A DNA stretch of 7,894 nucleotides from an uncultured archaeon (GCA_964354495.1 CAYHAA010000003.1:62513-70406); one strand, 5' to 3'. Counted from the stretch's first letter, positions 740 to 7,839 are shown. Translations and numbers: made by a program. The notes: a model not told the origin generated them from the letters alone.

Positions 740-1960
740 ATGAAGATTCTCCATCTGTGTGACAGCCTTAATCCTGCCGGTCTTGGGGGCTATGAATCGT
801 ACCTTCGCTACTTGTCACAGCAGTTGGCAGAGAGAGGACATGAGTCGGTGGTGGTCACACAGGCACCCAGGAATGACACGCCAGACTGCATCATTCGTGC
901 TAACTACAGAGTGCTGTATCTCCGCGGCAATCTGCTCGAAGCAAGAAAGTGGATGTTCTATGCTCTTCCCGAGGAGGACCGTGAACTGGAAGCAACTCGG
1001 ATGTTCGGGAAGGATGACCTTGAATTGAATGTTCGGGCTCTAAGCAAGCAACTTCTGGGTGTCATCCAGGAGTTCAGTCCAGACATCATCCACGCACACA
1101 GCACCTATGTCGTATTCAATCGGGTTCTGTTGAATCTGAGAGAGGAGGGCCTGTTGAATGGTGTTCCCATTCTTGTGACAATCCATGGACGGCCAAAGCC
1201 TCTGATACTACCCGGCGGCAAAAGAACAACAGACTATGATGAGTTCTGTGAGGCACTCCCATTCAGTCTCATTCTGGGCGTCAGTCAGAATGTTACGGAT
1301 TCGCTGAAACACACACTGCAAGAGAGAAGAAGCGCTATCCCGGTACACACTCTGTACCTCGGAATCGACCTCAAGGTCTTCTCTCAACGACGTAGAAACA
1401 AGAAGATTTGGGATATTGCATACATGGGACGACTTGAGAAGATGAAGGCAGTCGATCTCTTTCCGGAGATGCTCTCAATGCTCAAAAAGGAGAATCCAAC
1501 TCTGAGGTTCTTGATGACGGGAGATGGCTCTCTGAGAGAGGGCCTGCTACATCAGTTTGAAGCCAAGGGAGTGTCAGACTTGGTCGAATATCGTGGTGTC
1601 GTAGAAGCTGAAGAGGTACCGAATCTTCTCAATCAGAGTCGTATCTTCATCTATCCTTCGAGAGAAGAGCCCTTTGGACTGTCCATTCTTGAGGCCATGG
1701 CATGTGGAGTACCCGTAGTTACAAGTAACATCTTTGGACCAAGTGAAATCCTTACAGATAACGTTGATGGAATCATGGTGGTACCTGACAGTGTCAAGGA
1801 ACTGACCGATGGCATTCATCAATTACTACACAATGATGCGCTTCGGGCGACTCTAGCCAAGAATGCCAGAAAGACGGTCGAGTCAAAATTCGACATCAGA
1901 CATCACTGTGACAAGCTTCTCAGAGTCTATCATGACTTGATTCATGCTCAAAAGAAGTGA
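740..1960 (+). CDS. Glycosyltransferase family 4 (GT-B fold, retaining)
   Basis: 406 aa. N-terminal MKILHL...GGYE...L...L..RGH, DIIHAH, YMGRLEKMKAVD, and the GT4 E-x7-E motif EPFGLSILEAMACGVPVV (1667-1693 for E..E). GGAG at 728-731, 8 nt before the ATG. Confidence 0.95.
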   Translation: MKILHLCDSLNPAGLGGYESYLRYLSQQLAERGHESVVVTQAPRNDTPDCIIRANYRVLYLRGNLLEARKWMFYALPEEDRELEATRMFGKDDLELNVRALSKQLLGVIQEFSPDIIHAHSTYVVFNRVLLNLREEGLLNGVPILVTIHGRPKPLILPGGKRTTDYDEFCEALPFSLILGVSQNVTDSLKHTLQERRSAIPVHTLYLGIDLKVFSQRRRNKKIWDIAYMGRLEKMKAVDLFPEMLSMLKKENPTLRFLMTGDGSLREGLLHQFEAKGVSDLVEYRGVVEAEEVPNLLNQSRIFIYPSREEPFGLSILEAMACGVPVVTSNIFGPSEILTDNVDGIMVVPDSVKELTDGIHQLLHNDALRATLAKNARKTVESKFDIRHHCDKLLRVYHDLIHAQKK

Positions 1961-2227: not shown

Positions 2228-2845
2228 TCAGCTTGGACTTATGTGAGATCCTACTTCAGCAGCGAACCACTGCCAAAACCTCGCAAATAGGGGAGTCAGC
2301 AAGAAGACCGATGGTATACCTAATGTCAGTAATGGTAGCAGCTGAAATCCTATAGCAACGAGAACTGCTATTCCCTCCACAAGAAGACCAATGACTGTGT
2401 ATAGTAGAGCTGAGAAGGCCATACCGATTACAGAAAGAATCGACAACTTTGCAAGTGAACGACCTCTAGTGAAATCGTAGCTTGCTAGACCTGCAACTAG
2501 TCCAAGAAATCCAAACGCAACACCATATAGAGTGAATGCTACCATTCCCCCTGCCAAGAAGATGCTGACTAGCAGTTCTCCAATATAGCCGGTCAGAAAG
2601 CCGGCTATCGGTCCTCTAATAGCACCGACTACAGCAATCACTGCCAAAGCTGGAACAAGGCCCAGTGAAAAGAGACCGACTGCCAGGTAGGGCATGAAAA
2701 TCATTTGGAGGGCCAGATAAATCACTACGCCAAGAAGGATTGCCAGAAGTGTCCACATGGCTGCATTCGTGTTCTGAAGGTGTAGTTTCTCTCTCACTGA
2801 CTTCTTAGAGGTTTCTCTGGAATCGATGATCGTTTCTTCTGACAT
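2228..2845 (-). CDS. ECF transporter substrate-binding S component (UPF0397/MtsA-like), about 6 TM helices
   Basis: Hydrophobic protein of about 205 aa with PALAVIAVVGAIRGPIAGFLTGYIG, the S-component ...A..G...GP..G...G..G pattern. The ORF track starts at GTG 2854. ATG 2845 is preferred because GAGGTG (2857-2852) lies 6 nt upstream, overlapping the stop of the preceding gene. Confidence 0.8.
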   Translation of the reverse strand: MSEETIIDSRETSKKSVREKLHLQNTNAAMWTLLAILLGVVIYLALQMIFMPYLAVGLFSLGLVPALAVIAVVGAIRGPIAGFLTGYIGELLVSIFLAGGMVAFTLYGVAFGFLGLVAGLASYDFTRGRSLAKLSILSVIGMAFSALLYTVIGLLVEGIAVLVAIGFQLLPLLTLGIPSVFLLTPLFARFWQWFAAEVGSHISPS

Positions 2846-2855
2846 CTCTCTCACC

Positions 2856-4475
2856 TCACATTATGACAAGATGGTATGTTCCCGGCTCCAGGGATAGTGT
2901 ATAGTCACTGCCACCTGCTGACACCAATTCAGCAAACTGGCTTCCACCACTGTACGCTATGGGTAAGGACCCAAAGTTGCTGAATGTCAAAGTCGCGGTC
3001 TGGTCAACCTCGATATTGAGAACGAATCCTTCTTTCACAGGATCCCACTCAGCCTGATAGACCCAGATGTTGTCATCATCTGCTGCACTGATAAATGGAT
3101 AACTCCAGAACTCTGATGGACGTGCATCTCCAAGGTCTCTTATTGTCACTGGGAATGTTCCCCAAGTCCCAAGACCAGTTGAAACTGGCTGGAGCATTGG
3201 GTACAGTGACGCTATACCATCCTCGTAATGCATAGCTCTGCCATCTTCTGACCAGATCTGGTTGCTAGGGCCCAGCCAGAAGTTCCTAAGTCGCTCCACC
3301 GTCTGTGTGTCCCCTCTCTGATTTGCCAGTGCCATCGTGAAGAAACTCCCAAGCACAGTGTCCAAATCGGTGAAGCTGCCCGGCTGGTTGTATGATCCCA
3401 GCATGTACATCTTGCTGCTTGAGAGGTCTCTGCCGTAGACCTCTATGAATCGTTCATAGTCGTTGATGGTCTCGTTCTCTTGGGTGTATTCAAGAAACAT
3501 CATCGCCCAGGAGGCACCATATGAGGAGACAGCAAGTTGATCGCCCTGCATAGTTGGTCGGGGGTAGTCATCAAGTGAATCATTGGAGCCCTTGTGTGGT
3601 GATACAAGATAGCTGTGAGCAAAGAGATTGTATCGGTCCTGCATCACCGTGTTAGCAAAGTTGAGTCCATAATCCCACATTCCACTCTCCATGTAGCTCT
3701 CTCCGTAGAGATTGTCGAAGAGCTCTGTCGTGAGGATAGGAATGCTGTTGCACTGGATGAATACAATATATGGCTCACAGGGAATGAGACCCACTCCCCA
3801 GATTCCTCCCTCCTTGGGATTGCCATAGCCATCGGTAGTCAATGAGTTGTTCCAGTCATCGATGAACCAGTTGATTTCATCTGTAAACTCGCCAGTGTTG
3901 AAATTGCGCTCAAAGAGAGCCATCATCAATGCATAGTGTCCTGTCCACATGATGTTTGCTGGACCTCGAAAACCTCCTACAAAGAGATCTGTGGGGTCAT
4001 TTGGATCAGGATAGTAATACTCATCCCAGTTTGATTGTACCCATTCCCAATACTCGATAGAGTCGTTTCCATACTCTTCATCAGCAATCGTTGTATTCAT
4101 CATCTTGACTAGTGAATAGGCAACATCCCGATAGGCGGATGAACGATACCCAGGTGTGGTCTCAAAGAGCATTGACAGAGTGTAGGTGGTGAAAGCAGCC
4201 AAATAGTGCCGACCACCCTTGAAGCCATCCGCATACCAACCATCCCAGGAGTTGTATTCACGGTCTGTGGTGAGGGTGGTGAAGTAATTGAACATGCCAA
4301 TCTGATCTTTGTTGAGAGCCCGATAATCAGCAAAATTGAATGTGACCCCATCGATAGTCTGAACACTCACTGATGCAGGAGGGGTTGGAAGATTTCCAAA
4401 TGTCATTCCTGCGAAGACTATGGTGATGGTGAGGACTGCAAGTATGAACTTATTCTGTTTCAGAATCTGGGACAT
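2856..4475 (-). CDS. Exported or membrane-anchored linalool dehydratase/isomerase (LinD/Ldi)-family protein with a C-terminal extension
   Basis: 539 aa. Collinear matches to Castellaniella defragrans LinD (recalled sequence): ANIMWTGHYALMMALF vs ENIMYKGHLNLMYGLY; LIPCEPYIVFIQCNSIP vs GIVCEPDNYFVQCNSVA; FDNLYGESY vs YDRLHGTDY; VSSYGASWAMMFL vs ISAYTTAWTLAMV; LGSFFTMALANQRGD vs LASAFTLLLAREMGD. N-terminal K-led hydrophobic helix (KFILAVLTITIVFAGMTFG) and five N-x-S/T sequons (NTT, NDS, NNS, NDS, NET). Confidence 0.88.
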   Translation of the reverse strand: MSQILKQNKFILAVLTITIVFAGMTFGNLPTPPASVSVQTIDGVTFNFADYRALNKDQIGMFNYFTTLTTDREYNSWDGWYADGFKGGRHYLAAFTTYTLSMLFETTPGYRSSAYRDVAYSLVKMMNTTIADEEYGNDSIEYWEWVQSNWDEYYYPDPNDPTDLFVGGFRGPANIMWTGHYALMMALFERNFNTGEFTDEINWFIDDWNNSLTTDGYGNPKEGGIWGVGLIPCEPYIVFIQCNSIPILTTELFDNLYGESYMESGMWDYGLNFANTVMQDRYNLFAHSYLVSPHKGSNDSLDDYPRPTMQGDQLAVSSYGASWAMMFLEYTQENETINDYERFIEVYGRDLSSSKMYMLGSYNQPGSFTDLDTVLGSFFTMALANQRGDTQTVERLRNFWLGPSNQIWSEDGRAMHYEDGIASLYPMLQPVSTGLGTWGTFPVTIRDLGDARPSEFWSYPFISAADDDNIWVYQAEWDPVKEGFVLNIEVDQTATLTFSNFGSLPIAYSGGSQFAELVSAGGSDYTLSLEPGTYHLVIM

Positions 4476-4632: not shown

Positions 4633-5049
4633 GTGAGAGAGAAATCACGGAGAGTTGTAAGAGGAAGGCTCGGGAAGAATTTTGATAACCACGTCGCAGC
4701 TCTTCTCAAGAAGTATCCGCATACGAATGTTCAATTGGTCATCAAGAACGATGATGGGAAGGTGATTGGAGGGCTCGACGGCTATTCGGTCCTTGGAACT
4801 ATGACCGTCGACGAGAGATATCGGGATCAGGGTTATGGGAAGGATCTCTTGATGTATGCTGAGAGAGCCGCTAGGGAGAGGAGATGCATCGCTCTTCAGA
4901 CGGCGTGCTTCTCGTTTCAGAACCTTGAGTTCATGAGGAACTATGGATTTGATACCTTTGGCGCGTCGGACGTGTATCCTAGGGGAGTGAAGGAGTACTA
5001 TCTCATCAAGAGACTCAAGAAACAGCAGGACCGGTCTTGTGCTACCTAG
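4633..5049 (+). CDS. GNAT-family N-acetyltransferase (possibly with a short internal deletion)
   Basis: 138 aa from GTG. VIGGL.G, motif A VDERYRDQGYGKDLL..AE..A (R-x-x-G-x-G acetyl-CoA loop), then motif B TACFSFQNLEFMRNYGF and C-terminal YP.G...YYLIKRL. No clear RBS, so the start is uncertain. Confidence 0.88.
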   Translation: MREKSRRVVRGRLGKNFDNHVAALLKKYPHTNVQLVIKNDDGKVIGGLDGYSVLGTMTVDERYRDQGYGKDLLMYAERAARERRCIALQTACFSFQNLEFMRNYGFDTFGASDVYPRGVKEYYLIKRLKKQQDRSCAT

Positions 5050-5217: not shown

Positions 5218-5772
5218 TTGCAGCGAAGGTTGAGAGTTTTTTCGGCCATTGGGCACAAGAATCTCATTCTGCTTATCGTGGCACTGTTAGCACCTGAGTT
5301 TGTAGGATTTCAACACCTTGTGTGGCTGCCGGGATTCACTCATGATACATTCAAGATGACGTCAATCACATGGACCCTGACTTACTCTGATTGGTTCTCT
5401 AGCGTTGAAGGAGCACTGAATGGATGGCTGTTCTTGCCCAACTTGACATTTGCTATGCCGATTGCTCTCTACTTGCTTCTTGTGATATCGGTAACACGCC
5501 TGGTTTTTGTAGCTGTAGTGTTTCTCCACAGAGAATGCGGAGTCGACGAGTCAATACTAATCGTTGTGGGCATATTGTTATCTGGCATCAGTGTTGTAGG
5601 CTGTGCATATTCAATGACGGCGAATGTGATCTATGGAATTCCTCCCGGAGGCCCTCTACTTTCCATTCGCGCCCCTGATTTTGATGCAAGGCTTTTCGTT
5701 CCGACCCCAATACTTCTGGTAGCAGGATTACTTCTCTCAAAGAAACAGAATTCGTCAGATGTGGAAGCCTAA
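5218..5772 (+). CDS. Hypothetical integral membrane protein (about 4 TM segments)
   Basis: 184 aa from TTG, the first start after an in-frame TGA at 5209-5211; GTGTGA lies 6 nt upstream. Hydrophobic segments NLILLIVALLAP, IALYLLLVISVTRLVFVAVVFL, ILIVVGILLSGISVVGCAY, FVPTPILLVAGLLL. No family recognised. Confidence 0.7.
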   Translation: MQRRLRVFSAIGHKNLILLIVALLAPEFVGFQHLVWLPGFTHDTFKMTSITWTLTYSDWFSSVEGALNGWLFLPNLTFAMPIALYLLLVISVTRLVFVAVVFLHRECGVDESILIVVGILLSGISVVGCAYSMTANVIYGIPPGGPLLSIRAPDFDARLFVPTPILLVAGLLLSKKQNSSDVEA

Positions 5773-6425: not shown

Positions 6426-7133
6426 CTAGACTGGCCGTTGCTTGAATCGCAGAGCGCCATATGCTTCTATCAAGAAAAATGTCAGAATAAAGAACACTAC
6501 CACTTTCTGTCCTAGTGTAAAGATTATCGCAACTTCACCTGAGGCATCGCTATTTATCAAGAGGCCAAAGTAGGTGAGTATGACAACACCCAATGCTACA
6601 AATCCAGTTGCATTCCAAATGGGATAATTCTCACTCACAAGGATTGCTAACGTGTAGAATATCACGACCGGAAGAGTGGAAAGGAAAGCAATGGCACCAA
6701 ACATGAGGTGGATAGGCCGAAAGATATCTGCGGGTGTAAGACTTCCACCGATGAATGTAGCAGCCATGAATATTCCGGTGACTGAACCCGTGAAACTGAG
6801 CCATTTTGCTTCTTTTTGACCTTTGAAAAAATCAGGCATAGCAAGGAAGAATAAAACGAGAAAAACACCGAATGAGAACAGAGATGAATTGAAGAGAAGT
6901 GATGATACGAGGTTGGGTTGGCCCGAATAGGCCGTGATCATTCCCAAGTCGCTCAGGAAATTCTCAATGACTGAAAAACCGGGAGAACTGGTGTTGTTTT
7001 CGGTCCCACCAGTATAGAATAACGCCGCAAGAGGTATCAGAACAAATGACTGAAGAGTTCCAAACACTGTCAGGAGAAATGACTTTCTTCTCCAATCATT
7101 TCCATATTGGTGTCCGTCATCATCATTCACCAT
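6426..7133 (-). CDS. DUF998-like multi-pass membrane protein
   Basis: FYTGG...PGFSVIENFLSDLG motif followed by about 5 further TM helices, with H in RPIHLMFG. Start revised from the ORF track's 7220 to ATG 7133: GGGAGG (7145-7140) is 6 nt upstream and the start overlaps the RDD gene end by 11 nt. 235 aa. Confidence 0.75.
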   Translation of the reverse strand: MVNDDDGHQYGNDWRRKSFLLTVFGTLQSFVLIPLAALFYTGGTENNTSSPGFSVIENFLSDLGMITAYSGQPNLVSSLLFNSSLFSFGVFLVLFFLAMPDFFKGQKEAKWLSFTGSVTGIFMAATFIGGSLTPADIFRPIHLMFGAIAFLSTLPVVIFYTLAILVSENYPIWNATGFVALGVVILTYFGLLINSDASGEVAIIFTLGQKVVVFFILTFFLIEAYGALRFKQRPV

Positions 7134-7839
7134 TCTTTTCCTCCCAAATATCTGGTCCTTTGGATTCTTTGTCTTGCCACCAGTCCGGTCCCTCAAATGG
7201 ATCCTGTTGCGTACTATCAATGCGTGTGTTTACCACGACTACATCTGATATCTGCTGCATGACTCGGAACTGCTTTCGTTTTGCATAGGATGCTCTCAGA
7301 GAAAGTACTACAAAACCGACCGATATGTCCCATAGTAAAAGAAAGGACCTCCCGAGCGCATTTAGGACTCCCTCTCTTACTGAGATCGGACTATTGCCAT
7401 CTCGCTTGACTGTTCTAATTCTCAGGATTGCCTTGCCTACTGTTTTTCCTGCGGTAAGTGAATCGAGTAAGAGAAAATATCCGAATCCAACAATTACGAT
7501 GGACAGCGAACTACCGAAGTAGAGCATGCCATAAGGAGTGAAAAGAGGAAGAAAGAATAACAAGTAGGAAAAGATGGCTGAGAATATCAAGAGAGGGAGT
7601 GATAAGATGGCGAATAATCCAGTATAGAGAATAGAGGAGATGACTCTTGAAGGATATCCAGTTACTATCGATAACAAGACATCGTTGATAATAAAGATTA
7701 GTGCAAAATCGATTCCGAATGCAGCAATCCGAACAGATGTACTTGCTAGGCGTTCTTGATCCAAGGGACGTGTGACTCTCCGCACAATTAGAATCACACC
7801 AAGGAACGCTACGATATTGATCGCAATGAATACTGCCAT
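7123..7839 (-). CDS. RDD-family membrane protein
   Basis: LASTSVRIAAFGID (conserved R and D), YF...D....KTVGK.ILRIR.V..DG, then a C-terminal ...SDVVVV strand. The frame stays open upstream to a TGA at 7891-7893, so the true start may be earlier (see the CTG 7872 finding). Confidence 0.85.
   Translation of the reverse strand: MAVFIAINIVAFLGVILIVRRVTRPLDQERLASTSVRIAAFGIDFALIFIINDVLLSIVTGYPSRVISSILYTGLFAILSLPLLIFSAIFSYLLFFLPLFTPYGMLYFGSSLSIVIVGFGYFLLLDSLTAGKTVGKAILRIRTVKRDGNSPISVREGVLNALGRSFLLLWDISVGFVVLSLRASYAKRKQFRVMQQISDVVVVNTRIDSTQQDPFEGPDWWQDKESKGPDIWEEKNGE

Follow-up and report, generated by a model that had tools for sequence, protein, structure and literature searches.

A conserved Asgard gene pair of a linalool dehydratase/isomerase-family enzyme and a protein with a predicted ECF S-component fold

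Enzymes of the linalool dehydratase/isomerase family (LinD, or Ldi) are known from a few monoterpene-degrading bacteria and are valued for their cofactor-free alkene and alcohol chemistry. LinD of Castellaniella defragrans, a hydratase-isomerase of myrcene, linalool, and geraniol, is a homopentamer with its active site between subunits. The known substrates of the S components of energy-coupling factor (ECF) transporters are vitamins, cofactor precursors, and metals, and to our knowledge none of them is an isoprenoid. Here we analyze a window, the whole stretch of 7,894 nucleotides (nt) examined, from a metagenome-assembled genome of an uncultured archaeon (GCA_964354495.1, CAYHAA010000003.1:62513-70406), in which a gene of the LinD/Ldi family (P0001) is followed on the same strand by a gene for a protein with a predicted S-component fold (P0002). 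The host genome (3.3 Mb, 97.7% complete) belongs to Thorarchaeota (Asgard), a lineage judged from the source names of close homologs. A LinD branch conserved in archaea, its catalytic core intact, would extend the family and its substrate range, and the S-component fold would gain a new use, for uptake or for substrate presentation, if one of its members is obligately coupled to an extracellular enzyme. Literature searches returned no description of a LinD-like/S-component pair and nothing relevant on linalool dehydratase together with archaea or Thorarchaeota.

Conservation and coupling of the two genes

A scan of GTDB species genomes recovered 49 loci at 48–83% identity, and in all 46 that have downstream DNA the next gene downstream, on the same strand, encodes a P0002 homolog. 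The scan used subfamily-specific peptide patterns and is uninformative on bacterial Ldi genes paired with S genes. In a Pfam-based scan of 301 Asgard genomes, the enzyme was found in 42 of 76 genomes of the window's family and in 2 of 3 and 4 of 21 genomes of two others. There too the S gene is directly downstream, at each of the 29 loci where downstream DNA is available. Together the loci span three Asgard families and reach as low as ∼32% identity; the 46-locus and 29-locus sets probably overlap in part. The original prediction had asked whether the pair is conserved and named chance adjacency as its refutation. With the pair kept at every locus of both sets, chance adjacency of the two genes is effectively excluded.

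Other features of the loci agree with a joint history. Several genomes carry two copies of the entire pair, and the pairwise identities of enzyme and S protein correlate (r = 0.86 over 44 pairs, with 0 of 999 permutations as high). In the window, the TGA of the enzyme gene had been placed within the GAGGTG ribosome-binding site of the S gene, 10 nt from its ATG, and the sequence bears this out (table 1). The S gene has an alternative in-frame GTG start at 2854, but the ATG is favored because 16 of 18 relatives start with MSE. A stop codon inside a GAGG-type site, with a spacing of 9–13 nt, occurs in 23 of 32 related loci, which strengthens the earlier view that co-translation is very likely; eight of the other nine junctions measure 4 nt or less, one of them being a 4-nt overlap. 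As read from gene order and junctions, the two genes appear to be obligately paired and translationally coupled in the three Asgard families. A promoter and terminator scan built on bacterial consensus sequences is uninformative for an archaeon.

The pair is accessory, being present in 35 of 61 genomes of the family and in 14 of the 23 high-quality ones, and is for this reason likely to be a niche trait. In one single-contig relative (G242:C1:1094179-1097597), the LinD-like match covers residues 190–539 only, and a 45-residue fragment of a paralog of isopentenyl phosphate kinase (IPK) lies 2 kb downstream; in that genome the module may be decaying.

The enzyme and its membrane partner

Assignment of the enzyme to the LinD family rests on profile, fold, and active site. 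Against the Pfam Ldi hidden Markov model (HMM) PF18566, the enzyme scores 46.4 bits (cut-off 26.1), with a match to profile positions 5–201 of 318 only. A profile of 14 of its relatives matched solved LinD chains in the PDB (E = 1.3e-13) in three collinear stretches. An AlphaFold2 (AF2) model of moderate quality (predicted local distance difference test, pLDDT, of 62) consists of an N-terminal helix at residues 3–21, a helical barrel, and a C-terminal beta-sandwich, the last made of strands only and modeled at pLDDT ∼85–93. When this model was searched with Foldseek, LinD accounted for all of the top 27 matches (E = 1.6e-5; template modeling score by target of 0.55), and other barrels, of glycosidase type, followed at E = 0.009 or worse.

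In the profile alignment, N-I-M125-Y-K-G-H129 of LinD lies opposite N174-I-M176-W-T-G-H180 of the enzyme, and a C-E-P-x3-F-x-Q-C-N-S stretch places C171 and C180 of LinD opposite C233 and C242. Both cysteines, the only ones in the protein, and M176 are found in 123 of 123 aligned relatives and H180 in 122, in an alignment that includes six sequences from other Asgard families at ∼32% identity. Titles of PDB entries that name C171S/A, C180A, and M125A mutants of LinD, together with PMC12455561, confirm that the LinD residues belong to the active site. Because the invariant residues are exactly the catalytic ones of LinD, they argue for LinD-type chemistry. The active-site residues of LinD also include Asp39 and Tyr45 (PMC12455561). 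In a weak alignment (7.9 bits), Asp39 falls opposite T66 of the enzyme, in a column with D in 53, N in 39, R in 14, and T in 4 relatives, and the weak profile alignment to LinD gave no clear counterpart of Tyr45. By HMM, fold, and four catalytic residues, the original description of the enzyme as LinD-like stands: it is an Ldi-family (alpha/alpha)6-barrel enzyme with an intact Cys-Cys-His-Met core, on a distant, longer, and probably tethered branch.

A Kyte-Doolittle scan finds a single hydrophobic segment in the enzyme, at its N-terminus. Because this lone segment comes after K6 and K9, the protein is predicted to be N-in, C-out, and N8, G23, T25, N28, and P30 of the anchor region are conserved among relatives. 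The enzyme is probably membrane-tethered with its catalytic domain facing outward, in line with the N-terminal signal or anchor that had been predicted. The five sequons that had also been taken to place it outside the cell exist (N127, N137, N209, N298, and N334), and of these N127-[ST]-[ST] is invariant in the 123 relatives, with N137 in 88 and N209 in 93. As 4.8 sequons would be expected by chance, their number says nothing about export and was rejected as a sign of it; the conservation of N127, on the other hand, does count as evidence.

The identity of the partner is carried by its predicted fold. Using VIA-align, an AF2 model of P0002 (pLDDT 66) was compared exhaustively with 48,161 representative chains. 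ECF S components occupy the whole of ranks 1–14, beginning with 4hzu_S (Z of 15.2, root-mean-square deviation, rmsd, of 3.0, 160 aligned residues) and ending with CbiM 5x3x_M (Z of 9.6). Next come MreD 9dvb_D (Z of 8.8, rmsd of 3.2 over 125 residues), BtuM (Z of 8.5), and CbrT (Z of 7.2), and the remaining unrelated chains have a Z of 6.8 or less. The order given by Foldseek agrees with an S-component fold, but at E = 0.06 or worse, and a phmmer search of P0002 against the PDB returned nothing useful. Clusters of K and R at the N-terminus and in loops 76–80 and 120–133 are as expected for N-in, six-helix S components. Among 18 relatives, PF07155 matches 15 at E = 0.01 or better (best 5.4e-10) and NF010182 matches 16, and the language-model neighbors of P0002 are PF07155 clusters. 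The model comparison shows a predicted six-helix ECF S-component fold, so the S component named in the original prediction is supported by fold and by relatives, though this copy is itself sub-threshold. The family is narrow: of 1.84 billion representatives searched with its profile, 62 clusters matched at E = 0.001 or better, and none of these proteins has the length that a fusion with an Ldi domain would need, longer forms of P0001 not having been searched.

Prediction of a complex between the two proteins gave an interaction prediction score from aligned errors (ipSAE) of 0.55 against 0.00 for the best control, with at least 85% of contacts in agreement between runs and a partner pLDDT of at least 79. 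Of 80 solved complexes, 58 passed the mark set for this score, as did 2 of 110 mismatched pairs; at an ipSAE of 0.60 or under, those that passed were only 7 of the 80 solved complexes and both of these mismatches. The prediction lends weak support to physical contact between enzyme and S protein; given the strong prior from the operon, the score is mildly encouraging and no more.

Table 1. Features of the gene pair and its flanks, numbered from the first nucleotide of the window
Feature	Position	Strand	Details
LinD/Ldi-family gene, P0001	2856-4475	-	Open reading frame (ORF), 539 amino acids (aa), stop codon included; PF18566 match
S-component-fold gene, P0002	2228-2845	-	ORF, 205 aa, stop codon included; fold match
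Gene junction	2846-2858	-	TGA stop 2858-2856 within GAGGTGA ribosome-binding site 2857-2851; ATG 2845 10 nt on
N-terminal hydrophobic helix, P0001	4398-4466	-	Residues ∼4–26; signal peptide or signal anchor
N127-T-T N-glycosylation sequon, P0001	4089-4097	-	N-x-S/T in 123/123 relatives
NIMWTGH motif, P0001	3936-3956	-	M176 and H180 opposite LinD M125 and H129; alignment to 7ad2_A
CEPYIVFIQCNS motif, P0001	3744-3779	-	C233 and C242 opposite LinD catalytic C171 and C180
Extra C-terminal beta-sandwich domain, P0001	2859-3095	-	Residues ∼461–539; AF2 model; not in LinD
GT4 glycosyltransferase flanking the pair	740-1960	+	
GNAT acetyltransferase flanking the pair	4633-5049	+	

Proposed function and rival explanations

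We tentatively read the pair as one translationally coupled module at the outer face of the membrane, in which LinD-type chemistry on an isoprenoid-type substrate would be joined to uptake by the S protein, a reading we hold to be possible and short of probable. The enzyme would carry out cofactor-free, LinD-type acid-base chemistry on an external allylic isoprenoid-type alcohol or alkene. Candidate reactions are the addition or removal of water and a 1,3-hydroxyl shift, which could, for example, turn a tertiary alcohol or diene into a primary prenol. The S protein, probably touching the enzyme, would bind the product and bring it into the cell, driven by one of two shared EcfAA'T modules encoded elsewhere in the genome or, in the manner of solitary S components, on its own. 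Two rounds of phosphorylation in the cytoplasm would then let the alcohol enter isoprenoid lipid synthesis. Together these steps would make up the scavenging of isoprenoids through an ECF route that the original prediction had put forward.

The host genome encodes three EcfT homologs, on contigs C6, C12, and C1. The first belongs to a set of fused EcfAA' and EcfT and the second to a set of EcfA, EcfA', and EcfT; C1 carries a CbiMNQO set. Because neither of the two EcfAA'T modules on C6 and C12 has an S gene of its own, a shared-module arrangement is possible. EcfT is also present in all five distant genomes that carry the pair, which does not discriminate between readings. Elsewhere on C1 (G000:C1:142588-146052), an S component with borderline scores to PF12822 and PF07155 is encoded near a DUF4430 protein, a family which we take to be related to the beta domain of transcobalamin, and a 286-aa ORF without family match lies between the two genes. 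This locus may give the host genome a second S component that has an outside partner.

Downstream genes of related loci suggest where an imported alcohol might go. The pair had been described as a self-contained unit, and this holds in the window, where both flanking genes are on the plus strand, but many relatives have further same-strand genes after the pair. According to neighbor clustering, the order in Thorarchaeota is the pair, optional genes for Fur and a peroxiredoxin, optional genes for a membrane protein of 277 aa and a kinase of 278 aa, and then genes for GT4, a nucleotidyltransferase-like protein, Trm5/Taw2, DUF371, and riboflavin kinase. Of the 49 Thorarchaeota loci, 17–19 have a polyprenol-kinase-family gene and then an IPK paralog after the pair, on the same strand. 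These genes (L006:7394-9094, L034:9614-11285, and 15–17 further loci) form a candidate unit of prenol kinase and prenyl-phosphate kinase that is accessory, and in locus L006 the second gene starts 3 nt after the first. The 278-aa protein is an IPK paralog, with a score to NF040647 of 150.6 bits (cut-off 120) and a match to solved IPKs at E = 2.1e-29. The 277-aa protein is placed in the polyprenol/phytol/dolichol-kinase family by its language-model neighbors (0.94–0.95) and by a weak CTP_transf_1 match in 5 of 18 members. Its relatives bear the source names "dolichol kinase," "phytol kinase," and "diacylglycerol/polyprenol kinase family protein," and the profile of this family matched no solved structure. 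Most genomes of the family also hold a canonical IPK; the paralog is found in 43 of 61, and the host has the canonical enzyme only (best PDB match 3LL9, E = 2.6e-39).

Polyprenol salvage uses two kinases, acting on the alcohol and then on the phosphate, and the gene order of enzyme, S protein, alcohol kinase, and phosphate kinase resembles that two-step route (PMC9782597). Activities of a geranylgeraniol (GGOH) kinase and a geranylgeranyl phosphate (GGP) kinase are known in Sulfolobus (Ohnuma 1996, cited in PMC9385802), and the gene order recalls these as well. It is conceivable, if doubtful, that the pair is the front end of isoprenoid-alcohol salvage in Asgard archaea, in which case import by the S protein would involve the first lipid-class ECF substrate and the kinases would supply prenyl diphosphates for lipids. 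A surface LinD-type enzyme would first turn tertiary prenols or dienes from the environment into primary prenols, and possible sources in sediment are breakdown products of phytol, geranylgeraniol, or archaeal lipids. We know of no genes assigned to the archaeal kinase activities reported in 1996. If salvage of this kind takes place, some Asgard archaea would recycle sediment isoprenoid alcohols into lipids, which would bear on their carbon economy and on the reading of archaeal lipid biomarkers and would provide gene candidates for prenol salvage kinases.

Several observations weigh against the proposed function. Hydrophobic prenols cross into membranes without a transporter. There is no EcfT homolog within 6–8 kb of the pair in 54 neighborhoods, an absence that fits shared-module S components as well as it fits an ECF-independent protein. 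The S protein of the window falls below every curated HMM cut-off (PF07155, 16.9 vs. 26.7 bits; NF010182, 21 vs. 99), and its closest named sequence family is the riboflavin-type PF07155. In the enzyme, the neighboring-protomer pair Asp39/Tyr45 of LinD appears not to be conserved and the LinD disulfide is missing as well, so that pocket and oligomer may differ from those of LinD. The host genome has no orthologs of either kinase, its best matches being at 26% (canonical IPK vs. the paralog) and 30%. The IPK paralog is as common where the pair is absent (19 of 26 genomes) as where it is present (24 of 35), which led us to reject a phyletic link between the two. Even among the 24 genomes holding both, the paralog adjoins the pair in only 9, and the kinases sit in a wider synteny block with the housekeeping genes for Trm5/Taw2, DUF371, and riboflavin kinase. 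In other lineages, the neighbors of the pair are ABC (ATP-binding cassette) systems of exporter type, either MacB-type or ABC-2-type.

The module could instead serve the membrane itself, an alternative that the original prediction had also named. The outward-facing enzyme would then hydrate, dehydrate, or isomerize the cell's own isoprenoids, acting on a double bond or an allylic alcohol in an archaeal lipid, a polyprenol or dolichol carrier, or a comparable molecule embedded in the membrane, and the S-fold protein would present the lipid without transporting it. A tethered enzyme with conserved anchor-helix residues, the weakly supported contact with its partner (ipSAE of 0.55), and the lack of a nearby EcfT gene would all suit such a role. 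So would lipid-related neighbors, which include the GT4 gene, downstream in 24 loci, the polyprenol-kinase-family gene, and an ICMT/PEMT-like gene in one distant locus. However, the GT4 gene is on the opposite strand and within the general block of synteny, S components are known for substrate capture and not for lipid presentation, and a pair present in 35 of 61 family genomes is hardly a core step of lipid synthesis. On balance we consider action on the cell's own lipids unlikely. The ICMT/PEMT-like gene, in a distant Asgard genome (L089:6826-7500, minus strand), lies directly after the pair on the same strand, and its matches to the isoprenylcysteine carboxyl methyltransferase (ICMT) and phospholipid methyltransferase (PEMT) families, which would make its product a membrane methyltransferase, are sub-threshold (20.2 bits, cut-off 24).

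Capture of a micronutrient other than an isoprenoid, with the barrel as an extracellular binding or processing protein and the S protein of an ordinary vitamin type, for example flavin-like, appears quite unlikely. The named sequence families closest to P0002, PF07155 and NF010182, are of riboflavin type, but its own family is narrow and forms a separate group, and a strong PF07155 S component (108.9 bits) is already encoded on contig C17 of the host. A gene for a cytidine triphosphate (CTP)-dependent riboflavin kinase ∼4.4 kb away, in conserved synteny, would suit a flavin, yet it is part of the housekeeping synteny block, and its proximity to a riboflavin-type S gene is probably a coincidence of gene order. 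Transcobalamin is among the weak barrel matches to the enzyme model in Foldseek (E = 0.02–0.05), transcobalamin-like proteins serve B12 uptake, and the S component beside the DUF4430 protein in the same genome suggests that S components with an outside partner occur there. Against all of these stands the invariance of precisely the residues that are catalytic in LinD. The riboflavin kinase (L058:7162-7842), which has a MarR-type N-terminus, lies outside the window.

Periplasmic LinD has been proposed to convert membrane-damaging terpenes, and the Asgard pair might likewise serve in defense, with a surface enzyme converting toxic lipophiles and the S-fold protein clearing or exporting them together with MacB or ABC-2 systems. 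A MacB-like permease, an ATPase, and several small proteins adjoin the pair in the Thorarchaeota loci L018, L030, and L044, and MacB-type genes do so in another order in a distant family (L090 and L091). An ABC ATPase adjoins it in L092, with an ABC-2 permease, and in L093, with a 561-aa ORF of the same length and without family match. Defense is nevertheless distinctly improbable as an explanation: the link is one of gene neighborhood alone, the S fold is known from importers, and in the host the MacB cluster persists on a separate contig (C16) without the pair beside it. Besides genes for a MacB-like permease and an ABC ATPase, that cluster (G000:C16:53684-58164, or L098:6684-11164) holds four for small proteins. 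In L018, L030, L044, and L037, the pair is directly after the last gene of the MacB cluster, and in the host a Holliday-junction-resolvase-like gene occupies this place. Pfam and NCBIfam returned nothing for the small proteins of the MacB clusters (c18, c22, c38, and c39) or for the 160–167-aa genes that follow the pair in the distant family.

Barely credible is an adjacency without meaning, in which two unrelated genes stay together through slow genome rearrangement, in a part of the Thorarchaeota genome where gene order is conserved overall, since the pair is kept in all 46 and 29 loci while both flanks vary, persists with other neighbors in two further Asgard families at ∼32% identity, is duplicated as a unit within genomes, and conserves its stop-in-ribosome-binding-site junction.

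Elsewhere in the window, a 251-aa protein without a Pfam match is encoded on the minus strand at 3-644, continuing beyond the window to G000:C3:62404, and is found downstream of the pair in 27 related loci, mostly beside the GT4 gene. Two ORFs, at 5218-5772 on the plus strand (184 aa) and 6426-7220 on the minus strand (264 aa), have no above-threshold family match and no counterpart in related loci; the latter has a faint Frag1/DRAM-like match.

Comparison with known systems

The coupling of an outward-facing LinD-type enzyme to an S protein for uptake of an isoprenoid-type product, which we tentatively prefer, draws on several described systems and coincides with none of them. Two-step salvage, by VTE5/FOLK and VTE6 in plants and by the GGOH and GGP kinase activities of Sulfolobus acidocaldarius, has a kinase logic that matches the genes found in 17–19 related loci. 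In the Asgard loci, however, the second kinase belongs to the IPK family, whereas in plant salvage it belongs to the VTE6/COG1836 family, and both kinases are missing from the host genome and have no phyletic link to the pair. For plant and Sulfolobus salvage, we know of no upstream extracellular enzyme or transporter.

On the side of the S protein, the closest systems are the group II (shared-module) ECF S components such as RibU, ThiT, FolT, and PanT (PF07155/PF12822), with which P0002 shares a predicted six-helix fold (Z of 15.2 to 11) and a length of ∼200 residues. Like group II S genes, its gene is away from ecfA and ecfT, in a genome that holds EcfAA'T without an S gene of its own. Unlike them, its family is narrow and apparently Asgard-centered, and it is always, by the evidence of gene order and junctions, translationally coupled to a predicted extracellular enzyme. 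S-fold proteins can do without an ECF module or work with an accessory component outside the cytoplasm, as BtuM (PDB 8OVV) and CbiM with CbiN illustrate. The P0002 model superposes on BtuM with a Z of 8.5 (rmsd of 5.2 over 156 residues) and on CbiM with a Z of 9.6 (rmsd of 3.8 over 156 residues), but those systems handle cobalamin or metals and have no LinD-like partner.

For the enzyme, LinD/Ldi of C. defragrans (PF18566; PDB 5G1U, 5HLR/5HSS, and 5I3T) is the best match in both structure and sequence, and the two share the (alpha/alpha)6 barrel. C171, C180, H129, and M125 of LinD have the counterparts C233, C242, H180, and M176, invariant among the aligned relatives except for a single one at H180. 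Like LinD, the enzyme is predicted to be placed outside the cytoplasm by an N-terminal signal, and it has no sign of a cofactor site. It differs in sharing only ∼17–18% identity with LinD, in being archaeal and probably membrane-tethered, and in being ∼170 residues longer than the LinD chains of 364–372 residues, with insertions and the C-terminal beta-sandwich. The capping disulfide of LinD is absent, there being only two cysteines, Asp39/Tyr45 appear not to be conserved, and unlike LinD, the enzyme is always paired with an S-fold membrane protein. That the family can work at a membrane on hydrophobic alcohols is clear from Lis, the linalool isomerase of Thauera linaloolentis 47Lol (PMC4791888), which has a membrane-attached Ldi-like catalytic domain. 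This domain is predicted to lie in the cytoplasm and carries four fused helices at its N-terminus, whereas the Asgard enzyme has one helix and a domain predicted to face outward. In the Asgard pair, the multi-helix membrane protein is the product of a separate gene and has a predicted S-component fold.

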